Position numbers and translations under genes: made by a program
Shown here: positions 5,885-38,992 of the stretch, piece after piece
Layout of the letters: every line of letters starts with the position of its first letter
Numbering within the stretch: position 1 is the first letter of the stretch
Source: an uncultured virus (IMG/VR IMGVR_UViG_3300044825_003205)
Taxonomy: Duplodnaviria > Heunggongvirae > Uroviricota > Caudoviricetes
Virus record (IMG/VR): IMGVR_UViG_3300044825_003205
Coordinates: 62,001-126,000 of that record
Reading direction: 5' to 3' (one strand)
Length of the DNA stretch: 64,000 nucleotides
The notes under the pieces: model-generated
Seen by the model: the letters and a program-made list of their open reading frames with translations, nothing else
Told to the model about the DNA's origin: nothing
Databases searched by the model: none

Positions 5885-7558
5885 CTAGGATTCTTTACGC
5901 AACTTACCATCGTAATGTTCAAACCTATTGTGTTCAGTCGGTGTTAAAAGAAGTAATCCAGGATTAAACTCATCCTTCTTAATAAGTTGATACATATAAC
6001 TCATCCAAGTTTGTTCAAAAGGATGAGCCCATACTGTTTCTAAAAACATTTTTTTGTTTCCAAGTTTACTAACTATTTGTGGCCAATTACAATAATAAAC
6101 ATCTCCGTTTGTGTATGGTACACCCTTATGAGAAATTATATTTTTATACACCGCTTTTGGGGCGTTAGGGTCCAAACCTATTTCAGGTAATCTGTTTTTT
6201 TCGGGCCAAAATTGTTCTCTTACGTTTTGTGGAACATTATACCAAGCCCACTGTGTACCATTATCACCAAAAAATTCACTATAGTTTAATTTCAGATAAT
6301 CAAAATTTTCTTTTTTTGATATTTCGAGAGAAAGTTGATATAAATTCGGAACAAATCTGTTAAATCCATTTCTACATACACCTGAATTAGGATAAAAAAA
6401 CATGTCATCCTCGAAAAAAAACATGTAATCTAACTCAGTTTCTTCAAAATGTTTTGCAATAAATTGTCTACCTCCACAGATACCCAAATTACCTTCCTCA
6501 GGTATTATATGTTCAAAATCATACTCTTCACAAATACTATTATACTCGTCATATGTAGACTGGTCGGTAGAATTATTTAAAAGATATTTTTTAGGTTTTT
6601 CGATAAAAGTTTTATCATATTTTAACATTGAGTCTATTAAGGTTCTGAATTGTTTTGGAGAATTAAAAGTTATCACATAAAGACCTACCTTATTTATATC
6701 CAAATTATTTACCTTTAAACTTTTGTTTTCTGTTTTAACTAATAGATTGTCATTTTTAAGATTTTCAAAAAAAGTACCAATCAATCCATTATCCTGTATT
6801 TCAAAATAATTTATCAAATCCGAATGTTTGTAGGTCATAATTGTAAAAATTGATTCCTCCGTACCCATGTAACCTTCGTCCAAAGTTGATTTCAATAAAC
6901 CGTAATATATACTATTCATCTCAGAAATGCTGTCTTTTGGCCCTCCAAAAAAACCGGCTCTTGCAACTTTATTCACTTTAGCATTAACAATCTTTGATAA
7001 CTTATCATATTTAAAACCATGAATTTCTGAATTTGTCTCATAAGGAAAACAAATAAATGAAAACTTAGAAATATACTTCTTTAGTTTAGAAAGCACTTTG
7101 TCGTGAGTAAAATATCCAGCATGAACTGTGGAAGTTAAACCGCCGTCAATCCAAAACATATAATCTGAATTAAATTGGTCCATTATTTTTGCATCATGTA
7201 GTAAAAACATTTTCGACATGACTAACGGGTTGTAGTTTTCCAATTTTGCCTGAGTAGACTCTGAAAGCCAACCGACTTGATTATACCAATCAGGATTAGT
7301 TCTAATTTTTTGAATCTTATCAAAAAACTCATTGTTCCTAAACCAATTCAAATCACGAACAATGAATTGAGTGTTTTCAGGATTTCTTCTTTCGAAGACA
7401 AATTTTTTCAGTTCTTCGTCACCGAAAATTATCATATTTTCAGAAACCTTGAGGAGTTGTTCAAACTTATCTAAATAATGACTGAAAGGTCTTGACCAAC
7501 CTTCCGATAAATCTTTTCTACCAATATCCCAAATACCTGTTACTAATGTTATTGACAT
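5885..7558 (-). CDS. HtrL/YibB-like domain fused to GT-A (GT2-like) glycosyltransferase
   Basis: N-terminal TLVTGIWDIGR..W.R.F..YL..F, WIDGG and GFFGG; C-terminal domain with FFEDD motif. Confidence 0.7.
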   Translation of the reverse strand: MSITLVTGIWDIGRKDLSEGWSRPFSHYLDKFEQLLKVSENMIIFGDEELKKFVFERRNPENTQFIVRDLNWFRNNEFFDKIQKIRTNPDWYNQVGWLSESTQAKLENYNPLVMSKMFLLHDAKIMDQFNSDYMFWIDGGLTSTVHAGYFTHDKVLSKLKKYISKFSFICFPYETNSEIHGFKYDKLSKIVNAKVNKVARAGFFGGPKDSISEMNSIYYGLLKSTLDEGYMGTEESIFTIMTYKHSDLINYFEIQDNGLIGTFFENLKNDNLLVKTENKSLKVNNLDINKVGLYVITFNSPKQFRTLIDSMLKYDKTFIEKPKKYLLNNSTDQSTYDEYNSICEEYDFEHIIPEEGNLGICGGRQFIAKHFEETELDYMFFFEDDMFFYPNSGVCRNGFNRFVPNLYQLSLEISKKENFDYLKLNYSEFFGDNGTQWAWYNVPQNVREQFWPEKNRLPEIGLDPNAPKAVYKNIISHKGVPYTNGDVYYCNWPQIVSKLGNKKMFLETVWAHPFEQTWMSYMYQLIKKDEFNPGLLLLTPTEHNRFEHYDGKLRKES

Positions 7559-7560
7559 AA

Positions 7561-8196
7561 TTATTTTTTAACTTTACAAACCCAAACTACATTGTCGAAT
7601 ATATCTTTATCATATTCAACCAAATTATTTTTTTCACAACTTTCAACCAAATCAGAATCAGAAATCTCATGCCAATTCCAAACCTTTTTATATATTTTTT
7701 CTTCGAAAACCTCTCTATTTTCTGAATAATCGTGAGCTAATATAAAGTCCCCTTCTTTCAGAAAATCGGACAAAAGATTAAATTCTTTAATTTTGTTCCC
7801 TCCATCACAAAGTACTATAGTAATACCATCTTCCTTTATAAAAGAAATTACTTCATCTTTCAATTTAGTATATTCGTTGTCGAAAATATTTTCAGTTCTG
7901 ATGTCAACGCCTGAATCTCTCATTTCTTGATACCAAGGGTGAGAAATAATATCATAGGATATCAATTTACAATCTAATCCAATTTTTTTAATCGTGTAAT
8001 CTAAAAAACAAGTAAACCCACCAAGTGAAGTTCCAATTTCTAATATTCTTGAGGGTTTAACTTTACAGATGAAATTGTGAAAAACTTCAAAAACGTTCGG
8101 ATTTTGTTGGGCCGCCCATCCATCAAATGTTGAAATACTATCGTTAAATTCTAAATTAGATTTTTTTGTGACTTTATCTTCGAACTGACAATTCAT
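7561..8196 (-). CDS. class I SAM-dependent methyltransferase (CmcI/Methyltransf_24-like)
   Basis: ILEIGTSLGG, LCDGG and LAHDY motifs. Confidence 0.75.
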   Translation of the reverse strand: MNCQFEDKVTKKSNLEFNDSISTFDGWAAQQNPNVFEVFHNFICKVKPSRILEIGTSLGGFTCFLDYTIKKIGLDCKLISYDIISHPWYQEMRDSGVDIRTENIFDNEYTKLKDEVISFIKEDGITIVLCDGGNKIKEFNLLSDFLKEGDFILAHDYSENREVFEEKIYKKVWNWHEISDSDLVESCEKNNLVEYDKDIFDNVVWVCKVKK

Positions 8197-9053
8197 AGTT
8201 GTATGATTTTTTTTAATGGGTTATATTCTGAAAAATATCTATTTTTAATTTTTCTTAATCCTTCTATTTTTTCTGAATAAATTTTATCAGAATTATCATT
8301 AATGTAAATTAAAAGTTTTTTTATTTCTTTCAAGTCATTAATATCTTCAATTAAAATATACCCATCTTCAGGATAAATTTCTTTTATATTTTTACATCCA
8401 AAATAGATTGGTATGGTATCTGTCAAAATACAATCATAGAATTTTTCACTTATCCAATTTTTTTGATACTCGTTTTCAATTGAAATATTGAACTTGTAAT
8501 CTATTAAAGCATCGTGTCTTTTAGGACTGTTCTTCCAACCACCATAGACTTCAACAAAGTCTAACTCATTAATTAATTCTGCAATAGCATATCTTTCAGG
8601 ATACAAACAATTCTCCCCCAACTTCTGATTCAAGGAAGTTATAGAAGAAGATATATTTTTGTTTTTGGTTGTCTTAAACTTTGATAAATTATCAAATGAC
8701 CAAAATTCTAAAGGGTCCATCCAAGGACCCCTCCCACCATAAAAAGTATGTGCTACAGTTTCAACACATTTTACATTATAAAAGGAAGAATCGAACCCAA
8801 AAACTGTGACATTTTCATTAAAATTTTTTTGATGACTGCCAGAAAAAGTTGGTTCGTGAGGAAATACGTAACCTTTAGCACCGTCTCTAACACTCTGAGT
8901 CATATAATTAAAAAAAACTATGGTATCATAACTTTCGTCAAACACAAACTCTATTTGTGTTAAATCTATGTCAGGTGTTTTGAATTGTTTCAACAATCTA
9001 TCCAAAATGTTTTCAGGGGTATCCCAACCGGCACAAATTTTAATTTTTTTCAT
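8193..9053 (-). CDS. GT10 (alpha-1,3-fucosyltransferase-like) glycosyltransferase
   Basis: YKFNISIENE...WISEKFYDC....TIPIYFG, the GT10 signature. Confidence 0.8.
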   Translation of the reverse strand: MKKIKICAGWDTPENILDRLLKQFKTPDIDLTQIEFVFDESYDTIVFFNYMTQSVRDGAKGYVFPHEPTFSGSHQKNFNENVTVFGFDSSFYNVKCVETVAHTFYGGRGPWMDPLEFWSFDNLSKFKTTKNKNISSSITSLNQKLGENCLYPERYAIAELINELDFVEVYGGWKNSPKRHDALIDYKFNISIENEYQKNWISEKFYDCILTDTIPIYFGCKNIKEIYPEDGYILIEDINDLKEIKKLLIYINDNSDKIYSEKIEGLRKIKNRYFSEYNPLKKIIQL

Positions 9054-9697
9054 TTAACCTTTTGAATTTTTGATTTTTTATTTTGAAAAACTAAATCCAC
9101 TTGAATTAAATCCTGACCGTAATGTCTATGTAGCTCAATCACTTCATATAATCTGAAATCATTTTTTAAAAATTCGAAAATATTTTCGACCAAACAACCA
9201 CCAATATTATATTCAACTAATGAACATTCTAATTCGATAAACTCAATCTCTTTTAACATATCACCCAATCCCTGCATTATTAAAATCTCCGAACCTTGTG
9301 TGTCTATTTTCAGTAAATCTATTTTAGTTATGTTCTTTTCTGAACAAAGACTTTCTAAAGTTTTTGTAATCCTTTTTTCTTCGATTGTATTATGTGGCAT
9401 ATAGTGCTGAGTATCTTCTTTAAAAATTGAATCCCCTGTACAAAGACCTTCAACTTTCTTGTAGAAAATAATTTCCTCCCCATCTTTGTTGGATAATACT
9501 TCTATGGCACAATCATTAGTATTTGGAAAACACCCGTTTTCATTCCAATCATTTGCATCAATTCCAAGTACAAAAGAGTTATTGAAAACTGATTTTATTG
9601 AACCTGACCATTCTCCCTTACAAGCTCCACAATCCACTATTACATTTGGATTGAATCCTAAATTCTTAATTCTATTATAAACAAATTCTCTACTCAT
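9050..9697 (-). CDS. FkbM-family methyltransferase
   Basis: VDCGACKG, IDLLKIDTQGSE and IQVDLVF. Confidence 0.88.
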   Translation of the reverse strand: MSREFVYNRIKNLGFNPNVIVDCGACKGEWSGSIKSVFNNSFVLGIDANDWNENGCFPNTNDCAIEVLSNKDGEEIIFYKKVEGLCTGDSIFKEDTQHYMPHNTIEEKRITKTLESLCSEKNITKIDLLKIDTQGSEILIMQGLGDMLKEIEFIELECSLVEYNIGGCLVENIFEFLKNDFRLYEVIELHRHYGQDLIQVDLVFQNKKSKIQKVK

Positions 9698-9703
9698 AAA
9701 ATT

Positions 9704-10447
9704 TTACCTTTTGTTACCATTGAATATGAAACCAAATTGTGTTTGTAGGTCTCCCGAATGTAAGTCAAACATATTATCATACCCCGCAAATTTTGCAGAT
9801 ATACCTATTTCGAAACCATCACCCCAACTACCATTACCACCATTTTGACTTTGCATGATAGAATTTAATTCACTCCATTTATTTGCAAACAATTCTAATT
9901 TTTGTTTATCATATTTGAAAATTAAAAAATGTTCACTTGGTAAACAAGAATCTATAAGTCTATCATTCATATCCCAACTCAAAACACCATATGAATGTAT
10001 TTTGTGACTAAACAAACAACTACCAATGTTTTTTAATTGTGCAATTTCACCTCTCAAAACACAATTAAGTCTAGTTGCAACAGAATCATGAGATTCCATC
10101 AAAGACTTTAACCTTTCGTCAGAGACATCATTCCAAAATGTGTGTTTTATATCCCCATCCACATAAAAAATAACATCATATCCTTCAGGGATGTCTTTGA
10201 ATGCCAAATATTTTAGATTGTAATTAAATTCTGACCCTCCCTTATATAACAAAATTGAATCGGCAGGAACATTATTCCTTACAATCAATCTTTCGTTATT
10301 TATGTCTTCGAAGAAAGAAACATCATTCGTTGTTAACAAAATGTCGTGTTTGGTGTTTGACAATAATTCATTTATCAAATCTTTCGATGCATTCAAATAC
10401 ATTTGTCTATCTGTGGCTAATGATAGTATTGTGAATAATATTTTCAT
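9704..10447 (-). CDS. putative GT-A fold glycosyltransferase
   Basis: FNYNLK...YDVIFYVDGD DxD motif, in a glycosylation cluster. Confidence 0.5.
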   Translation of the reverse strand: MKILFTILSLATDRQMYLNASKDLINELLSNTKHDILLTTNDVSFFEDINNERLIVRNNVPADSILLYKGGSEFNYNLKYLAFKDIPEGYDVIFYVDGDIKHTFWNDVSDERLKSLMESHDSVATRLNCVLRGEIAQLKNIGSCLFSHKIHSYGVLSWDMNDRLIDSCLPSEHFLIFKYDKQKLELFANKWSELNSIMQSQNGGNGSWGDGFEIGISAKFAGYDNMFDLHSGDLQTQFGFIFNGNKR

Positions 10448-11388
10448 GATAAGAAAACTCTATTGAATTTGTCCATGATTATTTCAGGACTGAATTGTTT
10501 ATATGGTAAATCATAATCTTCATATTTCAAATAACTTTTGAAGTTATTAAAAATATCATAAACTTCATCTGGATTATTGTAAATAATCGCTCTTTCCCCT
10601 AACATCTCAAGATGAGCTCTCTCACCCGAAAGTCCATAAGTAACTACAGGTTTATTTTCTAATGCAAATTCTGATACTGCCAACCCAAAAGTTTCCCCAC
10701 CACTTCTAGCATGTATCATTGCATCGCACGCATTAACAAAAGATGATTTGGTTTCCAAATTCCACGAACCAGGTAAAAATTTTACCTTCGGGTGGTCAAC
10801 AAACTTGTTTATGTTCATGAATATAAATTCTATGTCCTCTCTTTCATTAACTGTTTTTATAATCATTTCTTTTACAAATTCTATATTGAATTCAGTCGAA
10901 CCAGCATAGCAACCGAATACTGTAGAAGTACTTGGTATACCTAATTTATCCCTAAAATTTTCATTCGGAGGGGGTAACTTCTCACAAATATACGGTAATG
11001 AATGTGTCTCAGGAGAATATCCTTGGTCTTTAGCTAACCAATCAGAAATGTAAAAATATTTATGACCATGTGGTTCGTTAAATCTAAACACAGTATGAAT
11101 CAAAGTTGGGATTGTTTCTAAACAGTAACCATCTTGATTTCCCATCTTAGTAAAATACAAGAAGTCAAAATTATTTTCTTTAAGATAAGTTTCATACTCC
11201 CACCAATACTTTATTTGTACTTCAAATCTATTTTGGAATTTTTCTAACGCATCCATATTTGAGTTAGGAAACGTAAAAATTACACTTTTATTACCCAATA
11301 CTTCTTCATTGTATTTGGCATAATTGAACAAACTAACCTCAGTGCCTCTTATACATAATTGATTACTATGGAATGCGATTTTTTTCAT
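10444..11388 (-). CDS. GT-B (GT4-like) glycosyltransferase
   Basis: RGTEV at the N-terminus; CDAMIHARSGGETFGLAVSEF (E-x7-E). Start moved to MKKIAFH. Confidence 0.8.
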   Translation of the reverse strand: MKKIAFHSNQLCIRGTEVSLFNYAKYNEEVLGNKSVIFTFPNSNMDALEKFQNRFEVQIKYWWEYETYLKENNFDFLYFTKMGNQDGYCLETIPTLIHTVFRFNEPHGHKYFYISDWLAKDQGYSPETHSLPYICEKLPPPNENFRDKLGIPSTSTVFGCYAGSTEFNIEFVKEMIIKTVNEREDIEFIFMNINKFVDHPKVKFLPGSWNLETKSSFVNACDAMIHARSGGETFGLAVSEFALENKPVVTYGLSGERAHLEMLGERAIIYNNPDEVYDIFNNFKSYLKYEDYDLPYKQFSPEIIMDKFNRVFLS

Positions 11389-11413
11389 ATTTTGTTTTAT
11401 TTTTTTTTTATTA

Positions 11414-11971
11414 TTAAGGATAAAAAACAAGTCCTGTTCCTGTGATGTGTCCGATATCAGAAATGTCTATTTTTTTTAATTCAATTCCAAGCCAAAAATC
11501 TAACATAGGGGTATTCAAATGAATGTCATCATATAATACTAAACCTTGATAATTGATGTTAATCAAATGTTTATGAAACATATTTTCAAAAGAACCATCA
11601 TGGAACGTATCAAGTAAAATAACCTTTGAATTGTGAATTGTATTGATATGTTTTTCATCTAATACATCGTCAATCAAAAATTCAATGTTTTCAGGAATAG
11701 ATGAAAGGTCTAAGTGATAACCAACATCGATAGAAATAACTCTGTTAGATTGGTTAGTTGAAAAGGCTAGTGCAGAACATCCTTTCAAACTTCCGATGTC
11801 CAAAAATTGCACATTATCATACTTACTCGATATAAACGACAAAAGTCTGTAATGTTCCATACCTGATGGAGAAAGGAAATATCTTTTATACTCATCAGAA
11901 TTAATCAGATTAACGTGAGAATCCAAATTCAATTGGTCTAAGTCTTCATTTTTTATTTCTTCAATATTCAT
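11414..11971 (-). CDS. class I SAM-dependent methyltransferase
   Basis: FLDIGSLKGCSAL, LLDTFHDG and LYDDIH. Confidence 0.65.
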   Translation of the reverse strand: MNIEEIKNEDLDQLNLDSHVNLINSDEYKRYFLSPSGMEHYRLLSFISSKYDNVQFLDIGSLKGCSALAFSTNQSNRVISIDVGYHLDLSSIPENIEFLIDDVLDEKHINTIHNSKVILLDTFHDGSFENMFHKHLININYQGLVLYDDIHLNTPMLDFWLGIELKKIDISDIGHITGTGLVFYP

Positions 11972-11983
11972 ACAAAAATTTTT

Positions 11984-12688
11984 TTATTTATTTAAAGCAT
12001 CCCAATAACACCTTTCAAGATATTCATCATATTTTTCGAAACATTTCAAATTATCAGAATACCCATCGCGTTGTGTGAACAACATGGGTATTGTTATACC
12101 TACATTAAATAGCCTATTTTCCCTTTTACATAATATTTCGTGTGAACAACAATCATTAAAAAATTCATCGTGTATTACACGGTAATATGGGTCATTGGGG
12201 TCATTGTAGTTTTTTAATGTTTCGTAAAAGTATTCGAGAAAATTTTTTTTATATAGAAACGCTTGGGCACACAGCGCATTGGAAACTTTTCCGAAGTGCT
12301 CGTCTAATCTTTCTATTCTTGCACCTTCCAAAGGTCTAGTACCCATACCAATTAAATCAAAGTATTCGTAGAACCTATCCCACTTTTCAAAAACTTTGTC
12401 GAAGTCGGATTCTTGTGTACCATTCATTACTTTAATATCATCTTCGAATATTATTATCGACTCTAACCCTTCATCAAGTGCTATTTTTGCACAATTCAAA
12501 AACGCTTGAGTTGCACCATAAACTCTCCATTCAGGGTCTTCGTAAATTACACCATCAATATACTCATATCCATCGAATCCGTATTTTTTTAATACAAGTT
12601 CCGTTTCGTATTTTCTATCCATCCTATAAGGTAAATTTATTACAAATCCCTTATCGGCAATTTTCTTTCCTTTATAAGAAACCATCAA
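11984..12688 (-). CDS. GT25-like glycosyltransferase
   Basis: FVINL..R.DR, IIFEDD, and C-terminal Q..GYSD motifs. Confidence 0.75.
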   Translation of the reverse strand: MMVSYKGKKIADKGFVINLPYRMDRKYETELVLKKYGFDGYEYIDGVIYEDPEWRVYGATQAFLNCAKIALDEGLESIIIFEDDIKVMNGTQESDFDKVFEKWDRFYEYFDLIGMGTRPLEGARIERLDEHFGKVSNALCAQAFLYKKNFLEYFYETLKNYNDPNDPYYRVIHDEFFNDCCSHEILCKRENRLFNVGITIPMLFTQRDGYSDNLKCFEKYDEYLERCYWDALNK

Positions 12689-13959: not shown

Positions 13960-13982
13960 GTTCTTTTTTCAGGAAAAATAAA

Positions 13983-14008
13983 AAACCCTCTACAAAAGTA
14001 GAGGGTTT
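13983..14008 (-). terminator. intrinsic terminator
   Basis: Hairpin AAACCCTCTAC-AAAA-GTAGAGGGTTT with a T-run on the minus strand, downstream of the collagen-like gene. Confidence 0.8.
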
Positions 14009-14034
14009 ACATAAAATATGTTTTATCTGTTGTT

Positions 14035-16353: not shown

Positions 16354-16378
16354 TTTCTTTTATTTTATAAATATGTTT

Positions 16379-23917: not shown

Positions 23918-23919
23918 TT

Positions 23920-27048: not shown

Positions 27049-27052
27049 TTTT

Positions 27053-28690: not shown

Positions 28691-28692
28691 AA

Positions 28693-29475: not shown

Positions 29476-29499
29476 AATTTGGTTTTAAAATAAAATAAA

Positions 29500-31109: not shown

Positions 31110-31756
31110 TGTTTGAAAATTCAGTTATTATTGCGGGAGGTGTCGGTTCAAGAATGAGACCTTTGACAAATTATATTCCCAAGGCGGTTGTAGAAATAAA
31201 TGGAACTCCTTTGATTCACAATTCTATCGAATTGTTGTCCACATATAATATTAATATATACGTAACCTACAATTATCTTCCTAACTTTATTTTCGAAAAA
31301 GTGAATTCGAGAGTTAAAGGATTTATAAATACAATAAATCAAGATAACTCTTACTTCCTTTTCAACAGCTTTATTAAAAATTTAAACGAACCAATTATTG
31401 TTCTCCCTTGTGATATAAAAATAGAGATAGACTTGAATCAAGTTTATAATGATTACTTTGAAAAAGGGGAACCAGCGATTATGATTATTGCTACAACTCC
31501 TGTGAATGGAGTTGATGGTGATTACATAGAGGAAGATGAAAATAACAATATTACTTCACTCAGTCGAACAATGGAAACAAAAAAATATTGTAGCGGTGTC
31601 CAAATAATAAACCCATACAAAGTTAATCAACTATCAGAATCCCATAATAATTTTTACAGTGTTTGGGAATCGTTGATTGAAAAAAAGGAACTAAAATTAA
31701 GTAGTATTTTACCTAATTCTTGGAACTCTTATGATGAAATAAAACAGATAAATTAA
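31109..31756 (+). CDS. sugar-phosphate nucleotidyltransferase
   Basis: IIAGGVGSRMRPLT..IPK motif; PCD. Confidence 0.8.
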   Translation: MFENSVIIAGGVGSRMRPLTNYIPKAVVEINGTPLIHNSIELLSTYNINIYVTYNYLPNFIFEKVNSRVKGFINTINQDNSYFLFNSFIKNLNEPIIVLPCDIKIEIDLNQVYNDYFEKGEPAIMIIATTPVNGVDGDYIEEDENNNITSLSRTMETKKYCSGVQIINPYKVNQLSESHNNFYSVWESLIEKKELKLSSILPNSWNSYDEIKQIN

Positions 31757-31762
31757 CAAACT

Positions 31763-32362
31763 ATGAATTTAGATTTTATATTAGAAAAAACACTAAATGG
31801 ACAAGGTGACTCTGATAGGCATTTGATTACATTATTTAGTATTGTGGTTGGTTCCAAAGCAAAAAATATATTGGAGCTTGGAGTCCGTAACGGAGATACT
31901 ACATTACCATTTTTATTAGCAGCAAAATTAAATCAAGGTAAGGTCTATTCTGTTGATATAGATGATACTAATTTTGTTGTTCCCGATGAACTGCAACCAT
32001 ATTGGCAATTTACAAAGATTGATGCAATACAATATTTGGAAAATTGGGACAGTTCTCAAAGTTTGGACATAGTTTACATTGATGATTGGCACTCGTACGA
32101 CCATGTGAAAAAAGAGTTATCTATTTTAGATAAATTAGTTTCCCCGTCAACAGTAATTTTAATACATGACTTAATGTACGGTGGAACTTGGCCCTTTTAT
32201 CATTCAGATATTACTTTGAAAGATGGTCAGTGGGCAAACGGTGGACCTTACAGAGCTGTTGCGGAACTAGACCCCCAATTTTGGGAATTCTCAACCTTAC
32301 CATGGAATAACGGTCTCACAATCTTAAGAAAAAAATATTCTAATAAATTTAAACAAAGATAA
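31763..32362 (+). CDS. class I SAM methyltransferase (Methyltransf_24-like)
   Basis: ILELGVRNG, YIDDWHSY, LIHD and NNGLTIL. Confidence 0.8.
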   Translation: MNLDFILEKTLNGQGDSDRHLITLFSIVVGSKAKNILELGVRNGDTTLPFLLAAKLNQGKVYSVDIDDTNFVVPDELQPYWQFTKIDAIQYLENWDSSQSLDIVYIDDWHSYDHVKKELSILDKLVSPSTVILIHDLMYGGTWPFYHSDITLKDGQWANGGPYRAVAELDPQFWEFSTLPWNNGLTILRKKYSNKFKQR

Positions 32363-32366
32363 CACA

Positions 32367-33056
32367 ATGAAAAAAGAAAAAATATTAATCATACTTCCCA
32401 CTAAACAAAGATTGAACGATTTCGAAACGTTCGCAGAATCATGGATGACTACGACAAAAGGAAAAAGTGACGTTTTGGTTGCAATAGATTTAGAGGATAA
32501 AACATATGATACTGTTAAGGAAAAATACCCATTTATTTATGAAAAAGTGGAACCCTCAAGTGTATTAGAAATACTCAATCAAATGGCCGTAAAATATTCT
32601 AAAGAATATAAATTTATTTCTTTTATGGAAGATGATTGTGTCTTTGTTACTGAAAATTGGGAAGACTCATTTATAAATAAATTAAATGAAATTGGTGACT
32701 ATGGTATAGTTTGGGGTAACGATTTAATTAACCGACATCAGATTGTAGGTTTACCATTTTTAGACTCTAAAATAGTCGATGTCCTTGGTTATATGTCTCC
32801 ACCTGAATTAAAATACCTTTGGGTTGATTATTTTTGGAAACAACTTGGAGCGGATTTAGGGACTTTATTTTATTTCCCTGAAATAATTGTTGAGCATAGG
32901 CATTATTCATCAGGAAAAAGACAAAAAGATGAAATTAGTGATGTAGTTGATAGTCATGGTTTAATTGATATGAAATCATACCATGAAAATTACCTGAAAA
33001 ATAGGTATCGTTCAGATTTACAAAAATTAATTAATCAGAGACAACGAAATAGTTGA
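32367..33056 (+). CDS. GT2-like glycosyltransferase
   Basis: IILPTKQR, FMEDDC, WGND and EHRH. Confidence 0.7.
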   Translation: MKKEKILIILPTKQRLNDFETFAESWMTTTKGKSDVLVAIDLEDKTYDTVKEKYPFIYEKVEPSSVLEILNQMAVKYSKEYKFISFMEDDCVFVTENWEDSFINKLNEIGDYGIVWGNDLINRHQIVGLPFLDSKIVDVLGYMSPPELKYLWVDYFWKQLGADLGTLFYFPEIIVEHRHYSSGKRQKDEISDVVDSHGLIDMKSYHENYLKNRYRSDLQKLINQRQRNS

Positions 33057-33838
33057 TGATGAAAAACAGAGATTTATGGATACCCAACCCATCTTTGGGA
33101 ACAGATTTTTTTAGAGTCTGTAGTGAAATAATTAGTAAGGAAGATTTGTTTAAAACTTTTAAGAGGAATCCTAGATTTTGTAATATAATCGGTAATGATG
33201 TCAGGTCAAAATCAATTTCTGATGTTTTATTTGACAGATTAATTCTAAGTGACTCAGATATTATATATAATATTGAAAAATTTAAAACTAATGACCTTTA
33301 CGGTGACCCCTACATGTATCATTATCCCAAAATTGGTTCTATTTCCCCAGGCACACTTTATTTTATCGACATTTTAAGACAGATTATTAATCATTTTGGG
33401 AACATAAATCGTTTCAATATAGTAGAAATAGGAAGTGGATATGGTGGACAAGCAAAAATAATTTTAGACCAAGGTGTCAATTCATACACTTGTATTGATG
33501 TAAAAGAACCATTATTTTTATGTAAAAAATATCTATCACTTTTCAATTATGATAATGTTCAATATCAAGAATGGAATAGCATTAAATCATCAGAATATAA
33601 CTTAGTAATTTCAAATTGGTGTTTGAGCGAGTTCAACGAAGAAGGTATTAATTATTATGTTGAAAGTGTTATCAAAAAATGTAATTTTGGTTTTTTTTTA
33701 ATGAATGTTTGGGACACTGATGAGAGAAAAAAATACATTATTAACAAATTAAAAGAAATTTTCAATACTGTGGAAATATTACCAGAAGAACCCAAAACTC
33801 ATCAAAATAATAATTTTTTATTAATCGGAAAAAAATGA
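33053..33838 (+). CDS. putative sugar O-methyltransferase
   Basis: NDLYGDP, IVEIGSGYGG and LVISNWCLSE. Confidence 0.75.
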   Translation: MMMKNRDLWIPNPSLGTDFFRVCSEIISKEDLFKTFKRNPRFCNIIGNDVRSKSISDVLFDRLILSDSDIIYNIEKFKTNDLYGDPYMYHYPKIGSISPGTLYFIDILRQIINHFGNINRFNIVEIGSGYGGQAKIILDQGVNSYTCIDVKEPLFLCKKYLSLFNYDNVQYQEWNSIKSSEYNLVISNWCLSEFNEEGINYYVESVIKKCNFGFFLMNVWDTDERKKYIINKLKEIFNTVEILPEEPKTHQNNNFLLIGKK

Positions 33839-34662
33839 TAGAAGTTAATTTATTCGACATGGAATTTATACATACTGAAAGTATGTTAGGGTACATTACA
33901 TGTTCTGATTTACTGAAACCCAAAAAAATTAAATGGGTTAACGGTAAAATGGTATTTGATGGCATCACAGTTTTTACTGACAGATATATCGACTACGATT
34001 TTGATAAAGTAAAATCATCCATAAAAATCTTTTGGTTGTTAGAACCAAGAGCAGTAAGACCTGATGGATATTCTAAAATAATAAAATTAGAAGATAAGTT
34101 TGACTATATTTTAACTTATGACTCAGAATTACTAAAAAGAAATAAAAAATATGTAAAATATATTGTTGGACAATCTAGAGTTTATGAACCCAAGATATGT
34201 GATAAAAAAAAGATGTTCAGTATGATAGCTTCAAATAAAAGAATGACTCAGGGACATAGATTTAGACACGATATATCCGAATCATTATCACTAAAACATA
34301 AAATTGATATGTGGGGTTCAGGATATAAATCATTCAGTTCGAAAATTGACCCACTATCCGAATATTATTTTAGTATTTCAGTTATGAATAGTAAAATTGA
34401 TAATTTTTTCACAGAAGTTCTTCTTGATAATTTTATGTTAGGAACTATCCCAATTTTTTGGGGATGTCCAAATATAAACGAATATTTTGATGATAGGGGT
34501 ATCATAAGTTTTGATACCATATCCGAACTAGATGAAATATTATCAAATTTGACAATTAGAGATTATTATGATAGAATGGAGTATGTGAAGAAAAATTTAG
34601 AATTAGCTAAAAATTATGTATCAACTGATGACATAATTGCGGATATATTACAAAAACTTTAA
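33835..34662 (+). CDS. GT10-like glycosyltransferase
   Basis: SMIASNK....GH.FRH; YYFSISVMNS...FFTE...D....GTIPIFWG. Confidence 0.75.
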   Translation: MIEVNLFDMEFIHTESMLGYITCSDLLKPKKIKWVNGKMVFDGITVFTDRYIDYDFDKVKSSIKIFWLLEPRAVRPDGYSKIIKLEDKFDYILTYDSELLKRNKKYVKYIVGQSRVYEPKICDKKKMFSMIASNKRMTQGHRFRHDISESLSLKHKIDMWGSGYKSFSSKIDPLSEYYFSISVMNSKIDNFFTEVLLDNFMLGTIPIFWGCPNINEYFDDRGIISFDTISELDEILSNLTIRDYYDRMEYVKKNLELAKNYVSTDDIIADILQKL

Positions 34663-34664
34663 TT

Positions 34665-35480
34665 ATGAAAATACTTGTTTTAGGTTCTTCGGGGCAGATA
34701 GGGATACCCTTAGTAAAATTTTTAAGAAAAAGAAATCATGAAGTTATAGAATTTGACATCGTAAAAGACGTGAACGAAGATTTAAGAGTTCCTTCTGTTT
34801 TAGATAAAATACTCCCTTCAATCGATTTTGTTTTTTTCCTCGCTTTTGATGTTGGAGGGTCTAAATACCTAGAAAAATATCAAGGCACATATGAATTTTT
34901 AGATAATAACATCAAAATAATGGAATACACTTTTGATAGTTTGAAGAAGTATAATAAGAAATTTATCTTCACTTCGACTCAAATGTCAAATATGATTTAT
35001 TCCCCATATGGTTTGTCCAAAAGAATCGGTGAATTATATACTGAATCCTTGGGGGGTATAGTGGCCAAACTTTGGAATGTTTATGGATATGAACATGATT
35101 TTGAAAAATCTCATGTAATCACGGACTTCGTTCTGATGTCTAAAAGGAACAACAAAATCGAGATGAGAACAAACGGTGAAGAAGAAAGACAGTTTCTTTA
35201 TTCGGAAGATTGTTGTGAATGTTTAAATATTTTAATGGAGAAATATGATTACATTGATAAAAAACAATATTTTGAGCTTTCGAGTTTTGAATGGAGTAAA
35301 GTAATTGATGTGGCGAATATTATCAAGGACATTAATCCTGATTGTGAAGTCATACCAAACAATTTAAAAGATACTGTACAATTAGATAAAAAAAATGAAC
35401 CAAATAATTACGTATTAAATTACTGGAAACCAAAAGTATCTTTAAAAGATGGTATAAGAAAAATCTATGAAATGTATTAA
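34665..35480 (+). CDS. NAD-dependent nucleotide-sugar epimerase/dehydratase (SDR)
   Basis: VLGSSGQIG, YGLSK, WNVYG and RQFLY. Confidence 0.88.
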   Translation: MKILVLGSSGQIGIPLVKFLRKRNHEVIEFDIVKDVNEDLRVPSVLDKILPSIDFVFFLAFDVGGSKYLEKYQGTYEFLDNNIKIMEYTFDSLKKYNKKFIFTSTQMSNMIYSPYGLSKRIGELYTESLGGIVAKLWNVYGYEHDFEKSHVITDFVLMSKRNNKIEMRTNGEEERQFLYSEDCCECLNILMEKYDYIDKKQYFELSSFEWSKVIDVANIIKDINPDCEVIPNNLKDTVQLDKKNEPNNYVLNYWKPKVSLKDGIRKIYEMY

Positions 35481-35535
35481 TATCTTAATATTCATTTATT
35501 TAATATTATTTTACAGTTAGTTTTAAACAAAAAAA

Positions 35536-36264
35536 ATGGCAAAAAACGTTAGGAAAAGTGAGAACCAATTTACAGAACAGCCCTTAATTAAAACGAAGAA
35601 GGATTTGATTTGTAGTATTTTAAGAAAAAAAACCAAACAAAAATTTTTATCAGAAAATCAACGAGTATACTATGAAAAACTGGAAAAAAATCAAATAACA
35701 ATTTGTTCAGGACCTGCAGGTGTTGGTAAAAGTTATATTTCAATGAAATGTGCAATAGATTTATTGTCCGACCCAACAACACCATATGAAAAAATTATTA
35801 TTGTTAGACCCGCGGTAGAAGCTGAAGAAAAATTAGGTAGTTTACCTGGTAATGTTGAAGAAAAATTAGACCCTTACATATTTCCATCCTACTATCTTTT
35901 AAATAAAATAATAGGTAAGGAAACGAGGGAAAAACTCAAAGAAATTGAGGCGATTGAAGTTTTTGCTTTGGCATATATGAGAGGTATGAACATTGATAAT
36001 TCCATCCTCATATTTGAGGAAGCTCAAAACTCGACACCGAATCAAATGAAACTTCTCATGACAAGAATTGGGTTTAACTCGAAATTCTTTATTTCAGGTG
36101 ACTTAGAACAAACTGATAGATATAAAGATAAAACTCAAACAGGGCTTTATGATGCGATTAAAAGATTTGGGGGTGTGAATGACATATCTATTCATGAATT
36201 TGAATCCAAAGATGTTGTCAGAAATTCCCTTATCTCTGAAATTTTGAAAAAATATGATGAATGA
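35536..36264 (+). CDS. phoH: PhoH-family ATPase
   Basis: GPAGVGKS, RPAVEAEEKLGSLPG, YMRG, EAQN and GDLEQTD. Confidence 0.95.
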   Translation: MAKNVRKSENQFTEQPLIKTKKDLICSILRKKTKQKFLSENQRVYYEKLEKNQITICSGPAGVGKSYISMKCAIDLLSDPTTPYEKIIIVRPAVEAEEKLGSLPGNVEEKLDPYIFPSYYLLNKIIGKETREKLKEIEAIEVFALAYMRGMNIDNSILIFEEAQNSTPNQMKLLMTRIGFNSKFFISGDLEQTDRYKDKTQTGLYDAIKRFGGVNDISIHEFESKDVVRNSLISEILKKYDE

Positions 36265-36851
36265 AAATAGGTATTGATGTTAATAATGTTCTCAGGGATA
36301 CCCTCACGAAAATAGAACAAGTTTATGAAAGATGGTTTATTGAGAACCATGATGAGGAAGATGATTTTAAATATGAAATTAAATCTCCTGTAACTTCATT
36401 AGACTTAATGAATCATTTATCTTTCAAAGATAAAGACCATCTTTATGATTTCTTATATAAGGATTTTACCATGGAAATATTTGGTCACGCCGGTTCTGTC
36501 GAAATGACAACGATGAATGACCTAAATGATTTCTACCATAATTTGAGGGAGTATCATGATATCATAATTGTTTCGGATGAGATTGGTAAATCGAAACCCG
36601 CAACTTTATTTTTTATTTCTAAATTTGGTTGTTTGATTGAAACTATTAAATTTTATTCTGAACAAACAAAAAAACAGATGTGGAAATCTGTAGATATTTT
36701 ACTTACTGCAAATCCTGAACTACTTTTGAATAAACCATCGAAAAAAATGGTTATAAAATACGAAACCTCTTTTAATAAACACATTCACACAGAACACACA
36801 ATAACAAATTTGAAAGAACTCGAAAATAAAATAAAAGAAATTTATGGTTAA
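36261..36851 (+). CDS. HAD/5'-nucleotidase-like protein (degenerate motif I)
   Basis: MKIGIDVNNVLRD N-terminus resembles NT5C-type HAD proteins. Confidence 0.55.
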   Translation: MKIGIDVNNVLRDTLTKIEQVYERWFIENHDEEDDFKYEIKSPVTSLDLMNHLSFKDKDHLYDFLYKDFTMEIFGHAGSVEMTTMNDLNDFYHNLREYHDIIIVSDEIGKSKPATLFFISKFGCLIETIKFYSEQTKKQMWKSVDILLTANPELLLNKPSKKMVIKYETSFNKHIHTEHTITNLKELENKIKEIYG

Positions 36852-37125
36852 CGTTTTGGGCGAAAATTATTTTATTGACTTGGACGCTGTCGAAGATTAC
36901 TTAGATATGAGTTTGGAACCATCAGTTGAAAATTCAGGAGTAACTGAAACTAAAGTAAATTTGATTAAATTTGAAATGGTCAAAATGTTACTAGAAGTTA
37001 TATTATCTGAAGATGTTGAAATGGATGATAAATTGGGTATCAAATCATCAAATAGTTCAACTTCAATCCCATTCAAAATTGCATTCAATACTCTGTTAAA
37101 TAAAAAATTAATTAACTATTATTAA
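36844..37125 (+). CDS. hypothetical protein
   Basis: 93 aa ORF in operon. Confidence 0.6.
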   Translation: MVNVLGENYFIDLDAVEDYLDMSLEPSVENSGVTETKVNLIKFEMVKMLLEVILSEDVEMDDKLGIKSSNSSTSIPFKIAFNTLLNKKLINYY

Positions 37126-37128
37126 AAA

Positions 37129-38184
37129 ATGGAAAATAACTTAAAAGAAAAGGTTCAACAATCTATAGAGAACTTAAAAAATAAGTCCTCGAGGATTTAC
37201 TTCATGGTTCAAGACACCAAAGGAAATGCTAAAGCTTCTGTTAGATATATCTATCAAGTTGCTATGTCATTGAAAGAAGCAGGTTACAATGCAATAATTC
37301 TACACGAAAAAAACGACTACACTGGAGTAGGTGGATGGATGGGTCCTGAATATATGGAAAACATTCCACATAAGTCTATTGAAAAACAAAACTTAGAAAT
37401 TGCACCTGAAGACTTTATTGTCATACCTGAATTATTTGGTTATGTTATGGAACAAATCAAAAATATCCCATGTGGAAAAATAGTTATGACACAGTCTTAC
37501 AAATACATGTTAGAAACCTTACAACCTGGACAAACATGGCAACAATTTGGTTTTTTTAAATGTTTAACAACCACCCAAAAACAAAAGGAATATATTGAGG
37601 GCATCATGAAAAATGTGAGTGTTGATATACTAACTCCATACATTTCGGATGTTTTTGAAAAAAGAGAGTTACCTCCGATGCCAATTATTGGTATCCATTC
37701 AAGGGAACAATCCGATACAATTAATTTGATAAAAACTTTTTATCTAAAGTTTCCACAATTTAGATGGTTCACTTTTAGAGATTTGAGAGGTCTCAGTGAA
37801 AAAGAATTTGCGAACTCTTTAAAAGAATGTTTTTTATCTGTTTGGATTGATAGAGAGAGTGGTTTTGGGACTTATCCTTTAGAATCAATGGCCTGTGGTG
37901 TTCCTGTTATGGGACTTATTCCTGATATGTTACCTGAATGGATGGTGGAAGAAAACGGAATTTGGGTTGATGACATTACTATGTTGCCAGATTTTATTGC
38001 CGATTTTACACAAAACTGGTTAGAAGATAATATCAAACCAGAACTATATTCTGGTATTGATGCAACCTCAGCAAAATATAAAAATAGAGATGAATTTAAC
38101 AGTAAGAATTTAGAACTTTTCGATTCTTACATAAAAACAAGAGTTGAGTCTTTAGAATCACAAATTTCAAAATTAGAAGATTAA
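37129..38184 (+). CDS. GT-B (GT4-like) glycosyltransferase
   Basis: VIPE; ESGFGTYPLESMACGVPV. Confidence 0.75.
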   Translation: MENNLKEKVQQSIENLKNKSSRIYFMVQDTKGNAKASVRYIYQVAMSLKEAGYNAIILHEKNDYTGVGGWMGPEYMENIPHKSIEKQNLEIAPEDFIVIPELFGYVMEQIKNIPCGKIVMTQSYKYMLETLQPGQTWQQFGFFKCLTTTQKQKEYIEGIMKNVSVDILTPYISDVFEKRELPPMPIIGIHSREQSDTINLIKTFYLKFPQFRWFTFRDLRGLSEKEFANSLKECFLSVWIDRESGFGTYPLESMACGVPVMGLIPDMLPEWMVEENGIWVDDITMLPDFIADFTQNWLEDNIKPELYSGIDATSAKYKNRDEFNSKNLELFDSYIKTRVESLESQISKLED

Positions 38185-38185
38185 T

Positions 38186-38992
38186 ATGAAAAATAAATTA
38201 CCAATTTCAGTAATTCTGCCAATAAAATCTGCAATAGTAAAAGACTTTGAAGATTATTTTGACAAAGCAATAAAGTCTATAATATCGAATGATGTAATTC
38301 CTTCTGAGCTAGTAATTGTTCATACACAAGAAGAAAAGTTAGTTAACTTTTTGAATGAGTATAATTTCGAGGAATTGAACGTAAAAAAAATAAAATTTGA
38401 AGAATCTCCAAATTATTGTTCACAAGTTAATTTTGGTATAAAAAGTAGCGAATACGAATGGGTTTCAATATTTGAATTCGATGATGAATATTCATCTATA
38501 TGGTTCCGAAATGTGAAAAAATACATGGACGCATATCCGACCGCTCAGGTTTTACTACCTGTCGTTGTTGATACTGATTCGAAAGGAATGTTTGCAGGAT
38601 TTACAAATGAAGCAGTCTTTGCAGCAAACTTCACACAAGAATTAGGATATCTAACGAATGAAACTTTACAAAATTATCAGAATTTTCAGACCGCAGGTTC
38701 AGTTATAAAAAAACAAGTTTTCGAAGATTTTGGTTATTTCAAGTCATCAATCAAGTTAACATTCGTATATGAATTTCTTTTGAGATTAACATATAACTCA
38801 GTGAACATAATGACTATTCCAAAACTTGGTTATAAACATTTGAACATGAGAGAAGGTTCAATATTTTGGTCTTACAAAAACTCATCAGAGAAAATGCTCG
38901 AGGATGAAGTTAAATTTTGGTTGGCAACAGCAAAAAAAGAATACTTTTTTGTTGAGGATAGAACCATAAAATATGAACCCCAAGAATCCTAA
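38186..38992 (+). CDS. GT2-like glycosyltransferase
   Basis: ISVILPI, EWVSIFEFDDEY and EFLLRL. Confidence 0.7.
   Translation: MKNKLPISVILPIKSAIVKDFEDYFDKAIKSIISNDVIPSELVIVHTQEEKLVNFLNEYNFEELNVKKIKFEESPNYCSQVNFGIKSSEYEWVSIFEFDDEYSSIWFRNVKKYMDAYPTAQVLLPVVVDTDSKGMFAGFTNEAVFAANFTQELGYLTNETLQNYQNFQTAGSVIKKQVFEDFGYFKSSIKLTFVYEFLLRLTYNSVNIMTIPKLGYKHLNMREGSIFWSYKNSSEKMLEDEVKFWLATAKKEYFFVEDRTIKYEPQES

Follow-up and report, generated by a model that had tools for sequence, protein, structure and literature searches.

What a phage might glycosylate with enzymes of its own making, and where in the infected cell it might do so, is the question raised by a 64,000-nucleotide stretch of uncultured-virus DNA, here called the window, which comprises positions 62001-126000 of the single 134,630-bp contig recorded as IMG/VR IMGVR_UViG_3300044825_003205. 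Two gene clusters of the window, island A (5885-13959, minus strand) and island B (24537-38992, plus strand), are rich in genes for glycosyltransferases (GTs), methyltransferases and other sugar-related enzymes, and between them lie genes for large, repeat-rich, fibre-like proteins. The initial annotation of this DNA took the two islands for a system that builds fucosylated and O-methylated O-glycans on the phage's own capsid and fibres. All the genes that it named were found where it had placed them, including 14 GT genes, of which eight score above their Pfam cut-offs, two are recognisable by structure and four are sub-threshold; of its five methyltransferases three are firm (FkbM, MT24 and NanM-type), one is borderline (CmcI-like) and one weak (FtsJ-like).

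The window encodes a T4-type major capsid protein (gp23; 49676-51475, minus strand) together with a gp20-type portal, TerL, an S77 prohead protease, a family-B DNA polymerase (PolB) and an SNF2 helicase. The contig is without terminal repeats and its completeness is put at 41% by CheckV, while a collinear relative (G001, hereafter the complete relative) of 321,139 bp has a direct terminal repeat of 344 bp and a completeness rating of 100%; the islands therefore sit in a fragment of a freshwater T4-like jumbo phage of ~320 kb, and the initial annotation's view of a whole phage has to be narrowed to about two-fifths of one.

Our answer, held with moderate confidence, is that the enzymes carry out a cytoplasmic, lipid-carrier-independent O-glycosylation of the phage's own repeat-rich fibre-like proteins. 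We favour this answer because the lead enzyme of island A belongs by family and fold to a class that glycosylates polypeptides, because its gene is linked to genes for Thr/Pro-rich proteins, because the enzymes are predicted to be soluble, because genes for glycan export and for base hydroxymethylation are missing, and because virions of the cultured phage XacN1, which carries related enzymes, contain Schiff-stained proteins. Much of the original proposal of virion O-glycosylation stands on the same grounds, namely the protein-type initiator, the Thr/Pro linkage, the solubility and the absent export genes; its statements on the capsid, on fucose and on the target of island B do not, and nothing points to a capsid protein as an acceptor.

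The GT60 enzyme and its Thr/Pro-rich neighbours

The proposed initiator is encoded by 12685-13959 (minus strand), and its family assignment is strong: the protein matches PF11397 with 231.8 bits against a cut-off of 21 (Pfam; E 2.1e-68), and its XacN1 homologue, ORF334, scores 260.8 bits. We take PF11397 to be the family labelled GT60, and Trypanosoma cruzi TcOGNT-2 and Dictyostelium Gnt2 to be among its members. The family is large, with 7130 matches among 7999 candidates scored and 4591 representative clusters at E <= 0.001. An AlphaFold model built on 20 diverse relatives (pLDDT 93.1, pTM 0.88) finds its nearest folds among the polypeptide GalNAc-transferases (ppGalNAc-Ts), which account for all of the top 45 Foldseek matches (E ~1e-10) and all of the top 29 VIA entries (Z 19.5-22.1 over ~270 residues, rmsd ~3.5), the next fold, that of other GT-A enzymes, following at Z 16.9. 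Sequence identity to the ppGalNAc-Ts is 11-15%, and a sequence search against PDB chains gave no match at E <= 0.01. D95 and H97, in the motif QLDSHHRF, are invariant in 20 of 20 aligned GT60 relatives of 35-49% identity and presumably form the D-x-H of the catalytic metal site; the model shows an extra, beta-rich C-terminal domain of ~100 residues, and no hydrophobic segment was found in 19-residue Kyte-Doolittle windows. Family and modelled fold together support the assignment of this enzyme to the polypeptide O-HexNAc-transferases.

The nearest solved folds are those of the animal and Toxoplasma GT27 polypeptide GalNAc-transferases, the initiators of mucin-type glycosylation, whose metal site is also of the D-x-H type; unlike these, the phage enzyme belongs to a different Pfam family, and a ricin-type lectin domain was not identified in it. 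With the protist GT60 enzymes, T. cruzi TcOGNT-2 and Dictyostelium Gnt2, it shares the strong family match and a GT-A domain with D-x-H, and like Gnt1, a cytoplasmic enzyme that acts on a hydroxyproline of Skp1, it is without a membrane anchor. It differs from the protist enzymes in that its gene belongs to a phage of bacteria, that its putative place of action is the bacterial cytoplasm and that it has the additional C-terminal domain. In the available portion of the T. cruzi study, the catalytic domain of TcOGNT-2 is described as resembling that of Gnt2, and the activity as a Mn2+-requiring transfer of alpha-GlcNAc onto Thr of the mucin peptide KPPTTTTTTTTKPP (PMC3769586). As the first step of the pathway that we propose, the phage GT60 would put a first HexNAc, most likely GlcNAc, directly on Thr or Ser of Thr/Pro tracts, and it may also act on collagen-like Gly-Ser/Thr-Ser repeats.

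The acceptors would be the fibre-like proteins of 14035-21910, the product of 63011-63919 and others encoded outside the window. The GT60 gene starts 75 nt after that of a 772-aa collagen-like fibre protein of the type (Gly-Ser/Thr-Ser)n (14035-16353, minus strand; Pfam Collagen 1.1e-47, PHROG tail-fibre families), in whose Gly-X-Y runs X is Ser 60 times and Thr 46 times and Y is Ser 97 times and Asp 13 times, the whole protein having 5 Lys and 12 Pro. Beside it, 16379-21910 (minus strand) encodes a 1843-aa fibre- or adhesin-like protein with six DUF5122 (beta-propeller) and two Laminin_G_3 (ConA-like lectin) matches, a match to phrog_8510 ('virion structural protein') and several long Thr/Pro tracts, which amount to 131 T/S/P-rich 20-aa windows. 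A 302-aa Thr/Pro-repeat protein, encoded beside the head and packaging module (63011-63919, minus strand; 35% S+T, 15% P), consists of repeats over its middle ~190 residues, with 94 T/S/P windows; the repeats of this gene and of the collagen-like gene are tandem at the DNA level. Two more proteins with Thr/Pro tracts and an 1823-aa collagen-like protein are encoded in the rest of the contig, which brings the total to six such open reading frames (ORFs) among 110.

Related assemblies add to this picture. Three collagen-like proteins of the complete relative end in a Peptidase_S74 fibre-chaperone domain, and three of its Thr/Pro-rich ORFs stand directly before a GT9 gene and a gene for a 1229-aa FkbM-GT1-GT9 fusion, a second pairing of Thr/Pro-rich and GT genes. 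In an IMG/VR copy of the present phage (G004), a 3072-aa collagen-like ORF has 1677 residues in Gly-X-Y runs (L186:2350-11568, minus strand); the same place in the contig under study (G000, 1-4216; the two assemblies are offset by ~0.9 kb) holds just a 266-aa ORF and a 3.3-kb stretch free of ORFs, a difference that points to repeat collapse or length variation. No third glyco island was seen upstream in G004. The complete relative further encodes two 2OG-Fe(II) oxygenases (PF13640; L098:12949-13551, minus strand, and L099:1597-2220, plus strand) in a region that is missing from the window's contig. Their best PDB matches are hydroxylases of the PKHD/PiuC type and prolyl 3-/4-hydroxylases (E 4e-7 to 3e-3), and by analogy these enzymes could make hydroxyproline in the Thr/Pro tracts, on which GT60 would then act as Gnt1 does on Skp1.

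The linkage of GT60 to genes of this kind was followed through three sets of loci: a close set of 80 IMG/VR loci from the closest relatives (GT60 81-100% identical; four loci with <600 nt upstream of GT60), a divergent set of 78 IMG/VR loci (44-76% identical; 80 were taken and two dropped that had no BLAST match) and a bacterial set of 78 loci from bacteria or metagenome-assembled genomes (MAGs) of at least seven phyla (33-69% identical). The divergent set was gathered with an alignment query, used in place of the distant GT60 P0174, which as a single query found one locus in viral contigs. ORFs were flagged as Thr/Pro-rich if 10 or more of their 20-residue windows contained at least 15 T/S/P and at least 4 P, or as collagen-like by their Gly-X-Y runs, and a direct neighbour is one at <150 bp from GT60. 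Within 2.5 kb of GT60, a flagged ORF occurs in 75 of the 80 close loci (direct neighbour in 65), in 27 of the 78 divergent loci (direct neighbour in 24) and in 16 of the 78 bacterial loci, 24 of which have a Thr/Pro-rich ORF within 5 kb. By successive 2.5-kb bins, the density of flagged ORFs in the divergent set is 0.87, 0.41, 0.51 and 0.21 per 10 kb; the bacterial set has 18, 9, 1 and 1 Thr/Pro-rich ORFs (0.51, 0.28, 0.034 and 0.036 per 10 kb), numbers in which a recurrent ~4-kb Burkholderiaceae arrangement is counted several times and to which some low-GC 'MAG' contigs, possibly binned phage, contribute. Judged from gene neighbourhoods, the pairing of GT60 with Thr/Pro-rich genes recurs well beyond this lineage, yet is far from universal.

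A fixed frame with an exchangeable cassette

The gene order of the close set runs from p277 through two to six hypervariable fibre-like genes to GT60, a cassette, the HtrL fusion and PolB. The distal flank of the cassette, the HtrL gene (5885-7558, minus strand), encodes a 557-aa tandem GT-A glycosyltransferase (Pfam HtrL_YibB 71.5 bits, 1.2e-19, residues 2-251), homologues of which accompany GT60 in 79 of the 80 close loci and, at a distance of up to 10 kb, in 52 of the 78 divergent viral loci; XacN1 ORF330 is 41% identical over its full length. The model of this protein (pLDDT 77.9) has two GT-A domains, one at residues 1-265 (VIA Z 13.3 to BoGT6a; GT6-like) and one at 285-550 (VIA Z 15.8 to B4GALNT1, GnT-I and POMGnT1; GT2/GT13-like), and the whole chain finds LH3, Mimivirus R699, K4CP, LARGE1 and COLGALT1 by Foldseek (E 1e-11 to 1e-8) at a global TM of only ~0.27. 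Two GT-A domains in one chain are thus common to the HtrL protein and to the bifunctional glycan polymerases and collagen glycosyltransferases of the LARGE1/K4CP/LH3/R699 type, an architecture that alone does not show polymerase activity.

Between these flanks, 62 of 77 loci have the same two genes, one for a GT25 and one for a 294-aa protein without a Pfam match, and the other 15 have 14 further architectures, which makes 15 architectures in total with 40 protein families and 192 cassette proteins. Of 37 cassette-family representatives 19 match Pfam, and all 19 match families of GTs, methyltransferases or sugar activation, the list comprising GT25, GT10, GT11, GT7C, PLOD-GT, RXYLT1_C, GT34, GT2_2, FkbM, MT23/24, and HAD with nucleotidyltransferase. 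The seven-gene cassette of the window is unique among the 77 loci and the largest seen, and its genes recur in only 3-9 of the 80 loci. An assembly artefact can be dismissed, since a contig from another study's run (X2) covers 5094-12931 without difference. Of four runs whose contigs were compared with this region, two (X4 and X6) leave 6301-12150 almost uncovered and give the flanks some cover; no contig joins across, and this pattern is not taken as evidence of replacement.

Counted with its flanks, island A comprises nine genes, all on the minus strand, of which six are GT candidates (three above cut-off, one by structure and two sub-threshold) and three methyltransferases. Following GT60 in the direction of transcription, a weak GT25-like candidate (11984-12688; Pfam GT25 17 bits, cut-off 24) shares 27-28% identity with cassette proteins of the relatives, and GT25 itself is matched by the common 247-aa cassette protein with 48.5 bits and by L007:2930-3658 with 34.2 bits. 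Likewise, the weak FtsJ-like methyltransferase candidate (11414-11971; Pfam FtsJ 16.4 bits, below cut-off) has a cassette relative, L007:3676-4281, with both MT24 and FtsJ matches above cut-off. There follow a weak GT-B candidate of GT1/GT4-like type (10444-11430; Glycos_transf_1 20.6 bits against a cut-off of 26.4), a candidate GT of GT-A fold (9704-10447; no Pfam match, Atlas structure TM 0.62-0.64 to PF03407/GT8/GT6 clusters, 25% identity to XacN1 ORF331), a firm FkbM-family methyltransferase (9050-9697; PF05050 41.1 bits, NCBIfam TIGR01444 42.4 bits), a GT10 of the alpha-1,3-fucosyltransferase type (8193-9053; PF00852 4.2e-14, 53.1 bits; 8 of 80 loci) and a borderline CmcI/rhamnosyl-O-methyltransferase-like protein (7561-8196; RMNT_CmcI 23.1 bits against a cut-off of 23.2; 9 of 80 loci). 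In the pathway that we propose, the enzymes of the cassette would, as a second step, extend and O-methylate the chain begun by GT60, and the two-domain HtrL protein would, as a third, lengthen it by more sugars, possibly a repeating pair.

The arrangement, in which GT and modification genes vary between conserved flanks, recalls the O-antigen and capsule loci of bacteria, although in genetic logic only, the genes for lipid-carrier priming, flipping, polymerising and export that belong to such loci being absent from the phage contig and the scanned part of its relative. Since the cassette differs between close relatives, strains would show different glycans on otherwise similar fibres. We suggest, tentatively and as something possible rather than probable, that a widespread freshwater jumbo-phage lineage with cultured Xanthomonas and Stenotrophomonas cousins runs a cytoplasmic mucin-type pathway, in which GT60 and the two-headed GT-A enzyme form the frame and swapped cassettes set a strain 'glycotype' on the hypervariable fibres. 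If this were so, a virion glycan code would partly determine host range, adhesion and the escape from grazing and defence.

XacN1, Xoo-sp13 and the Stenotrophomonas phages CM1 and RAS14, like the present phage, combine a GT60 gene (44-50% identity) with one for the tandem-GT-A HtrL protein (41%) in a single cluster. In XacN1 the cluster consists of ORF334 (the GT60 homologue, 46% identity), a carbamoyltransferase, two small ORFs and the HtrL-fusion homologue, and is convergent with a gene for a 3313-aa protein (ORF325) that follows baseplate wedge genes; Xoo-sp13 is arranged alike. According to the accessible part of the XacN1 report, which includes the legend of its Suppl. Fig. S4, the virions contain at least two Schiff-stained glycoproteins, for which the authors proposed ORF328 and ORF334 as the enzymes (PMC5852040). 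The cluster of XacN1 differs in the carbamoyltransferase and in the rest of its middle part, and the stained proteins are not identified in that part of the report (PMC5852040).

Carbamoyltransferases of the NodU/CmcH type were seen elsewhere in the group. Two are encoded in tandem in the complete relative (L098:3465-6729, plus strand), and that of XacN1 (ORF333, L087:24792-27089, minus strand) comes directly after GT60, as does one in Xoo-sp13; such genes suggest O-carbamoylated sugars in some members.

Island B and the nature of the acceptor

Island B has 18 ORFs, among them five GTs above cut-off, one GT2-like protein recognised by structure, two sub-threshold GT1-like proteins and two firm methyltransferases; the two sugar enzymes of the short-chain dehydrogenase/reductase (SDR) type and the nucleotidyltransferase that had been assigned to it are confirmed by Pfam. 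It begins with a weak GT-B-like gene (24537-25748; Glycos_transf_1 16.9 bits, below cut-off; 74% identity in the complete relative). Next come a two-domain glycosyltransferase, GT2_5 + GT4 (27053-28690; PF13712 2.6e-27, PF13439 3.7e-10), two GT2 genes (28693-29475 and 29500-30162; PF00535 47.2 and 38.2 bits), an SDR resembling the UDP-HexNAc 4,6-dehydratases PseB and FnlA (30162-31109; Polysacc_synt_2 3.7e-57; NCBIfam PseB 1.4e-46 and FnlA 5e-33, below the equivalog cut-offs) and a sugar-1-phosphate nucleotidyltransferase (31109-31756; NTP_transferase 6.3e-11). These are followed by an MT24/CmcI methyltransferase (31763-32362; Pfam MT24 57.1 bits), the GT2-like protein (32367-33056; Atlas structure TM 0.84-0.85 to GT2 clusters), a NanM-type sugar O-methyltransferase (33053-33838; NCBIfam TIGR04371 56.5 bits, cut-off 44), a GT10 (33835-34662; Pfam GT10 34.3 bits) and an SDR epimerase/reductase (34665-35480; Epimerase 77.8 bits; weak GDP-fucose-synthase-like C-terminus, 8.4e-9). 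A second weak GT-B-like gene (37129-38184; Glycos_transf_1 17.5 bits, below cut-off; 66% identity in the complete relative) and a GT2 (38186-38992; PF00535 30.7 bits; 70% identity there) close the island.

Compared with the complete relative, the ends of island B are conserved at 33-74% identity (GT1-like, GT2_5/GT4 fusion, GT10, SDR, second GT1-like and GT2), whereas the middle differs: where the window has a GT2, the PseB-like dehydratase, the nucleotidyltransferase, two methyltransferases and the GT2-like protein, the relative has a GT2, FkbM, GT11, a TylF-type methyltransferase and a GDP-mannose-dehydratase-like gene. Elsewhere the relative has a UDP-galactopyranose mutase with a GT2. As the fourth step of the proposed pathway, island B would give a nucleotide sugar of the 6-deoxy-HexNAc type and further GTs and methyltransferases, acting on the same glycan or on a second one. 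The term 'fucosylated' in the initial annotation goes too far, because just two GT10 matches speak for it and the window has, in place of a GDP-fucose pathway, the PseB/FnlA-like dehydratase.

Whether a glycan could leave the cytoplasm by a dedicated route can be judged from the rest of the gene content. Among 39 proteins (those of 5491-42309 and that of 63011-63919), 38 have no 19-residue window with a Kyte-Doolittle mean of at least 1.6, the exception being a 727-aa ORF at 40126, and every glyco protein is thus predicted to be soluble. Pfam matches to a priming phosphoglycosyltransferase (Bac_transf, Glycos_transf_4), a flippase, Wzy, Wzz or an ABC or outer-membrane exporter are absent from the window and the rest of the contig, and the same lipid-carrier and export families found no match when 219 ORFs, each 90 aa or longer, were scanned between 125 and 321 kb of the complete relative, six ORFs across fetch boundaries being left out; the first 125 kb of the relative were judged by collinearity with the contig, except for eight ORFs from the middle of its island B. 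The earlier statement that flippase, Wzy, Wzz and exporter are absent is hence borne out over all three regions.

This absence bears on the idea that the enzymes remodel glycoconjugates of the host, be it lipopolysaccharide (LPS), capsule, S-layer or the gliding and adhesin glycoproteins of a Bacteroidota cell, which could block superinfection or alter the cell surface, and which we consider unlikely. A Bacteroidota host is pointed to by SprB repeats, Por_Secre_tail domains and an outer-membrane barrel predicted in the contig and the relative, and these host-like domains, carried by the phage, are themselves in keeping with an interest in the cell surface, as are GT25, GT9, HtrL/YibB and GT2, which are typical of LPS and capsule loci, and the place of island B among early-type nucleotide-metabolism genes. 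Similar sets have, moreover, been read in this way: the cyanomyoviruses S-SCSM2R and P-SSM2, likewise T4-like, have ~13 GTs (GT2, GT10, GT11, GT25) and NDP-sugar epimerases, which the accessible text explains by host cell-wall modification (PMC12801897). With 13 GTs in a cyanomyovirus already in print there, the 'unusually large scale' first claimed for the present phage becomes a relative matter. These cyanomyoviruses differ, however, in that their published table, as far as available, holds no GT60 and that they carry exporter-type PgaA and Kdo genes (PMC12801897), such genes not being found in the present phage. Against remodelling of the host speak the fact that genes for priming, flipping, polymerisation, chain-length control or export were found neither in the contig nor in the scanned 125-321 kb of the relative, the predicted solubility of all the enzymes, the polypeptide-transferase type of the conserved lead enzyme and the tracking of Thr/Pro-rich genes by GT60 in both phages and bacteria.

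A glycosylation of the phage DNA by some or all of the GTs, on a hypermodified base and in escape from restriction, is highly improbable. Phage GTs are known to act in this manner (as cited in the available part of PMC12619734), and a dUTPase and an NT5C-like gene lie inside island B, but, in agreement with the initial annotation, neither the window nor the remainder of the contig nor the scanned 125-321 kb of the complete relative gave a match to a dCMP/dUMP hydroxymethylase or to TET/JBP. The contig has no PF00303 gene, and the sole PF00303 gene of the relative, its only one of the thymidylate-synthase family, is closest to genuine thymidylate synthases (E 1.4e-70), which argues against glycosylation of hydroxymethylated bases. 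DNA methylases of the N6/N4 and Dam types are encoded in the relative instead, and sugar O-methyltransferases, GT10/GT11 and a polypeptide-type GT would be ill-suited to the purpose.

All four exact matches to ATATTTATA (16366-16374, 47417-47425, 55605-55613 and 63933-63941, minus strand) lie 10-25 nt upstream of minus-strand start codons, namely those of the collagen-like fibre gene, of 46711-47412, of 54884-55588 and of the Thr/Pro protein 63011-63919, and words related to TATTTAT stand upstream of the protease and portal genes; ATATTTATA may be a late-promoter motif. Another motif, TTTGACATAGA, occurs exactly twice, at 24515-24525 (plus strand) before island B and at 54660-54670 (minus strand) in the divergent region between 54179-54607 and a bS21-like ORF, and may mark a second promoter class. 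Neither motif is more frequent than in shuffles, so that only the placement is suggestive; sigma-70-like sites in 5001-25000 are likewise no more frequent than in shuffles (85 against 84.6), and the T4 late motif TATAAATA (11 against 8.5) shows no enrichment. Between the collagen-like fibre gene and GT60 lies a strong terminator-like hairpin (13983-14008, minus strand; an 11-bp stem with 5 GC pairs, then a T-run).

A number of observations weigh against a glycosylation of the phage's own fibres by both islands. Four of the 14 GT assignments fall short of their Pfam cut-offs, and the hairpin means that the fibre genes and GT60 need not be co-transcribed. The adjacency in the close set is inherited synteny and not independent evidence; 51 of the 78 divergent phage loci and 62 of the 78 bacterial loci are without a Thr/Pro-rich ORF within 2.5 kb. 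A correlation of cassette gene number with repeat content of the fibre block, a check proposed in the initial annotation, did not emerge among 24 distinct bounded loci (Spearman rho 0.13, p 0.56), an underpowered comparison with only three large cassettes. The XacN1 neighbour ORF325 has just 17 T/S/P windows in 3313 aa, and the cyanomyovirus sets have the other explanation given above. The fibre-like proteins are placed in the virion from PHROG and Pfam resemblance and from gene order. Island B, whose presumed link to the fibres is one of proximity, has upstream the motif of the bS21 region, TTTGACATAGA, instead of the ATATTTATA of the structural genes, and is interleaved with genes for an exonuclease, a dUTPase, PhoH and an NT5C-like protein and with a 93-aa ORF; with these nucleic-acid genes inside, it is not purely a glyco island.

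Some of these points would suit an arrangement in which island A glycosylates Thr/Pro proteins outside the virion, such as released or cell-associated decoys, matrix or adhesion factors, and island B serves another acceptor. The terminator-like hairpin between the fibre genes and GT60 and the different motif upstream of island B are compatible with it, as is the fact that the virion location of the Thr/Pro proteins is a matter of resemblance and that bacterial GT60 genes also adjoin genes for Thr/Pro proteins. We nonetheless find it distinctly unlikely, given that the collagen-like protein matches tail-fibre PHROGs and the 1843-aa protein a 'virion structural protein' PHROG, that the relative's collagen-like proteins end in Peptidase_S74, that ATATTTATA is common to the fibre genes, 63011-63919 and head-module genes, and that the XacN1 glycoproteins were, by the available account, detected in purified virions (PMC5852040). 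Glycosylation of the phage's own fibre-like proteins thus remains the answer that we prefer.

Comparable systems and further observations

Virion glycosylation by phages and glycosylation by virus-encoded enzymes are known kinds of process. In mycobacteriophages, phage-encoded GTs also decorate virion proteins, the difference being that few GTs act there, on the C-termini of capsid and tail-tube subunits (Freeman et al. 2023, as cited in the accessible part of PMC12619734). The present phage has, from its genes alone, 14 candidate GTs, an initiator of another family, repeat tracts as putative acceptors and a swappable cassette. Chloroviruses and mimiviruses, whose glycosylation is independent of the host secretory machinery, are alike in having virus-encoded soluble GTs, sugar-nucleotide enzymes and methyltransferases, and the modelled HtrL fusion resembles the two-GT-domain Mimivirus R699 as well as human LH3; they differ in their eukaryotic hosts. 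Chlorovirus glycans are N-linked, and the fibril glycans of mimivirus are made by other enzymes. The chlorovirus PBCV-1 is mentioned in the part of the XacN1 report at hand (PMC5852040).

In the literature on phage GT60/PF11397 and on mucin-like glycosylation in jumbo phages, we found no printed description of the present system. As far as the searched literature shows, what is new is the combination, in a jumbo phage, of a GT60/ppGalNAc-T-like initiator, Thr/Pro-tract acceptors, a tandem-GT-A partner and an O-antigen-like cassette. Only a few phages, with a handful of enzymes, are documented to glycosylate their particle proteins. If the reading that we favour is true, a eukaryote-style enzyme of mucin-type initiation would be at work in the bacterial cytoplasm, one of the largest phage glyco-toolkits would be assigned a purpose, and the cassette would be a route to virion-glycan diversity, with a bearing on the host range, adherence and recognition of environmental phages; many unexplained glycosyltransferase clusters of large aquatic phages would then have an alternative explanation. 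The reading can be put to a direct test, since the core module occurs in cultured phages and a virion proteome, that of XacN1 (ProteomeXchange PXD008065), is public.

Among phages in GenBank, the nearest capsid proteins come from an uncultured 484-kb phage, Microcystis phage Mel-JY01 and Flavobacterium phage immuto, the Xanthomonas jumbo phages being more distant. The major capsid protein of 599 aa aligns to its relatives and to Pfam Gp23 in two pieces, with ~55% covered, which suggests a large inserted or N-terminal extra domain. Moraphages are described, in the part of PMC12619734 available, as freshwater phages of Bacteroidota hosts with four core GT families, placed nearer to Lak phages, and that part gives only the core GTs and their possible roles. 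The present phage may be a moraphage; the description fits, but for the placement nearer to Lak phages.

The closest GT60 homologues from bacterial bins (60-69% identity) are in Saprospiraceae and Lewinellaceae MAGs, a possible hint to the host or to the donor of the gene; of the contigs that carry a bacterial-bin GT60, L110 (230 kb, 34% GC) may be a binned jumbo phage and L112 (611 kb, 62% GC) looks chromosomal. Envelope-type proteins of the complete relative comprise a 1091-aa outer-membrane beta-barrel with CarboxypepD_reg (L097:6060-9335, plus strand) and a 635-aa protein with a type-9-secretion C-terminal sorting domain (L099:7239-9146, plus strand).

The bS21-like ORF near the second copy of TTTGACATAGA (54702-54887, plus strand; 61 aa) matches ribosomal protein bS21 weakly (TIGR00030, E 1.5e-4; 21.5 bits, cut-off 28.95) and shares 76% identity with its counterpart in the complete relative. 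A 132-aa SET-domain protein of the lysine methyltransferase type (L004:2346-2744; Pfam 6.3e-15) is encoded immediately upstream of the SNF2 helicase gene and just beyond the left edge of the window. At the right end of the contig (L005:8230-8732, corresponding to 134130-134632 of G000), a tmRNA gene, the tag peptide of which ends in ...SVVAA, is followed by a tRNA-Glu(UUC), and a ClpB-like AAA+ chaperone, an Hsp20 and an M20 peptidase are encoded near the tmRNA.

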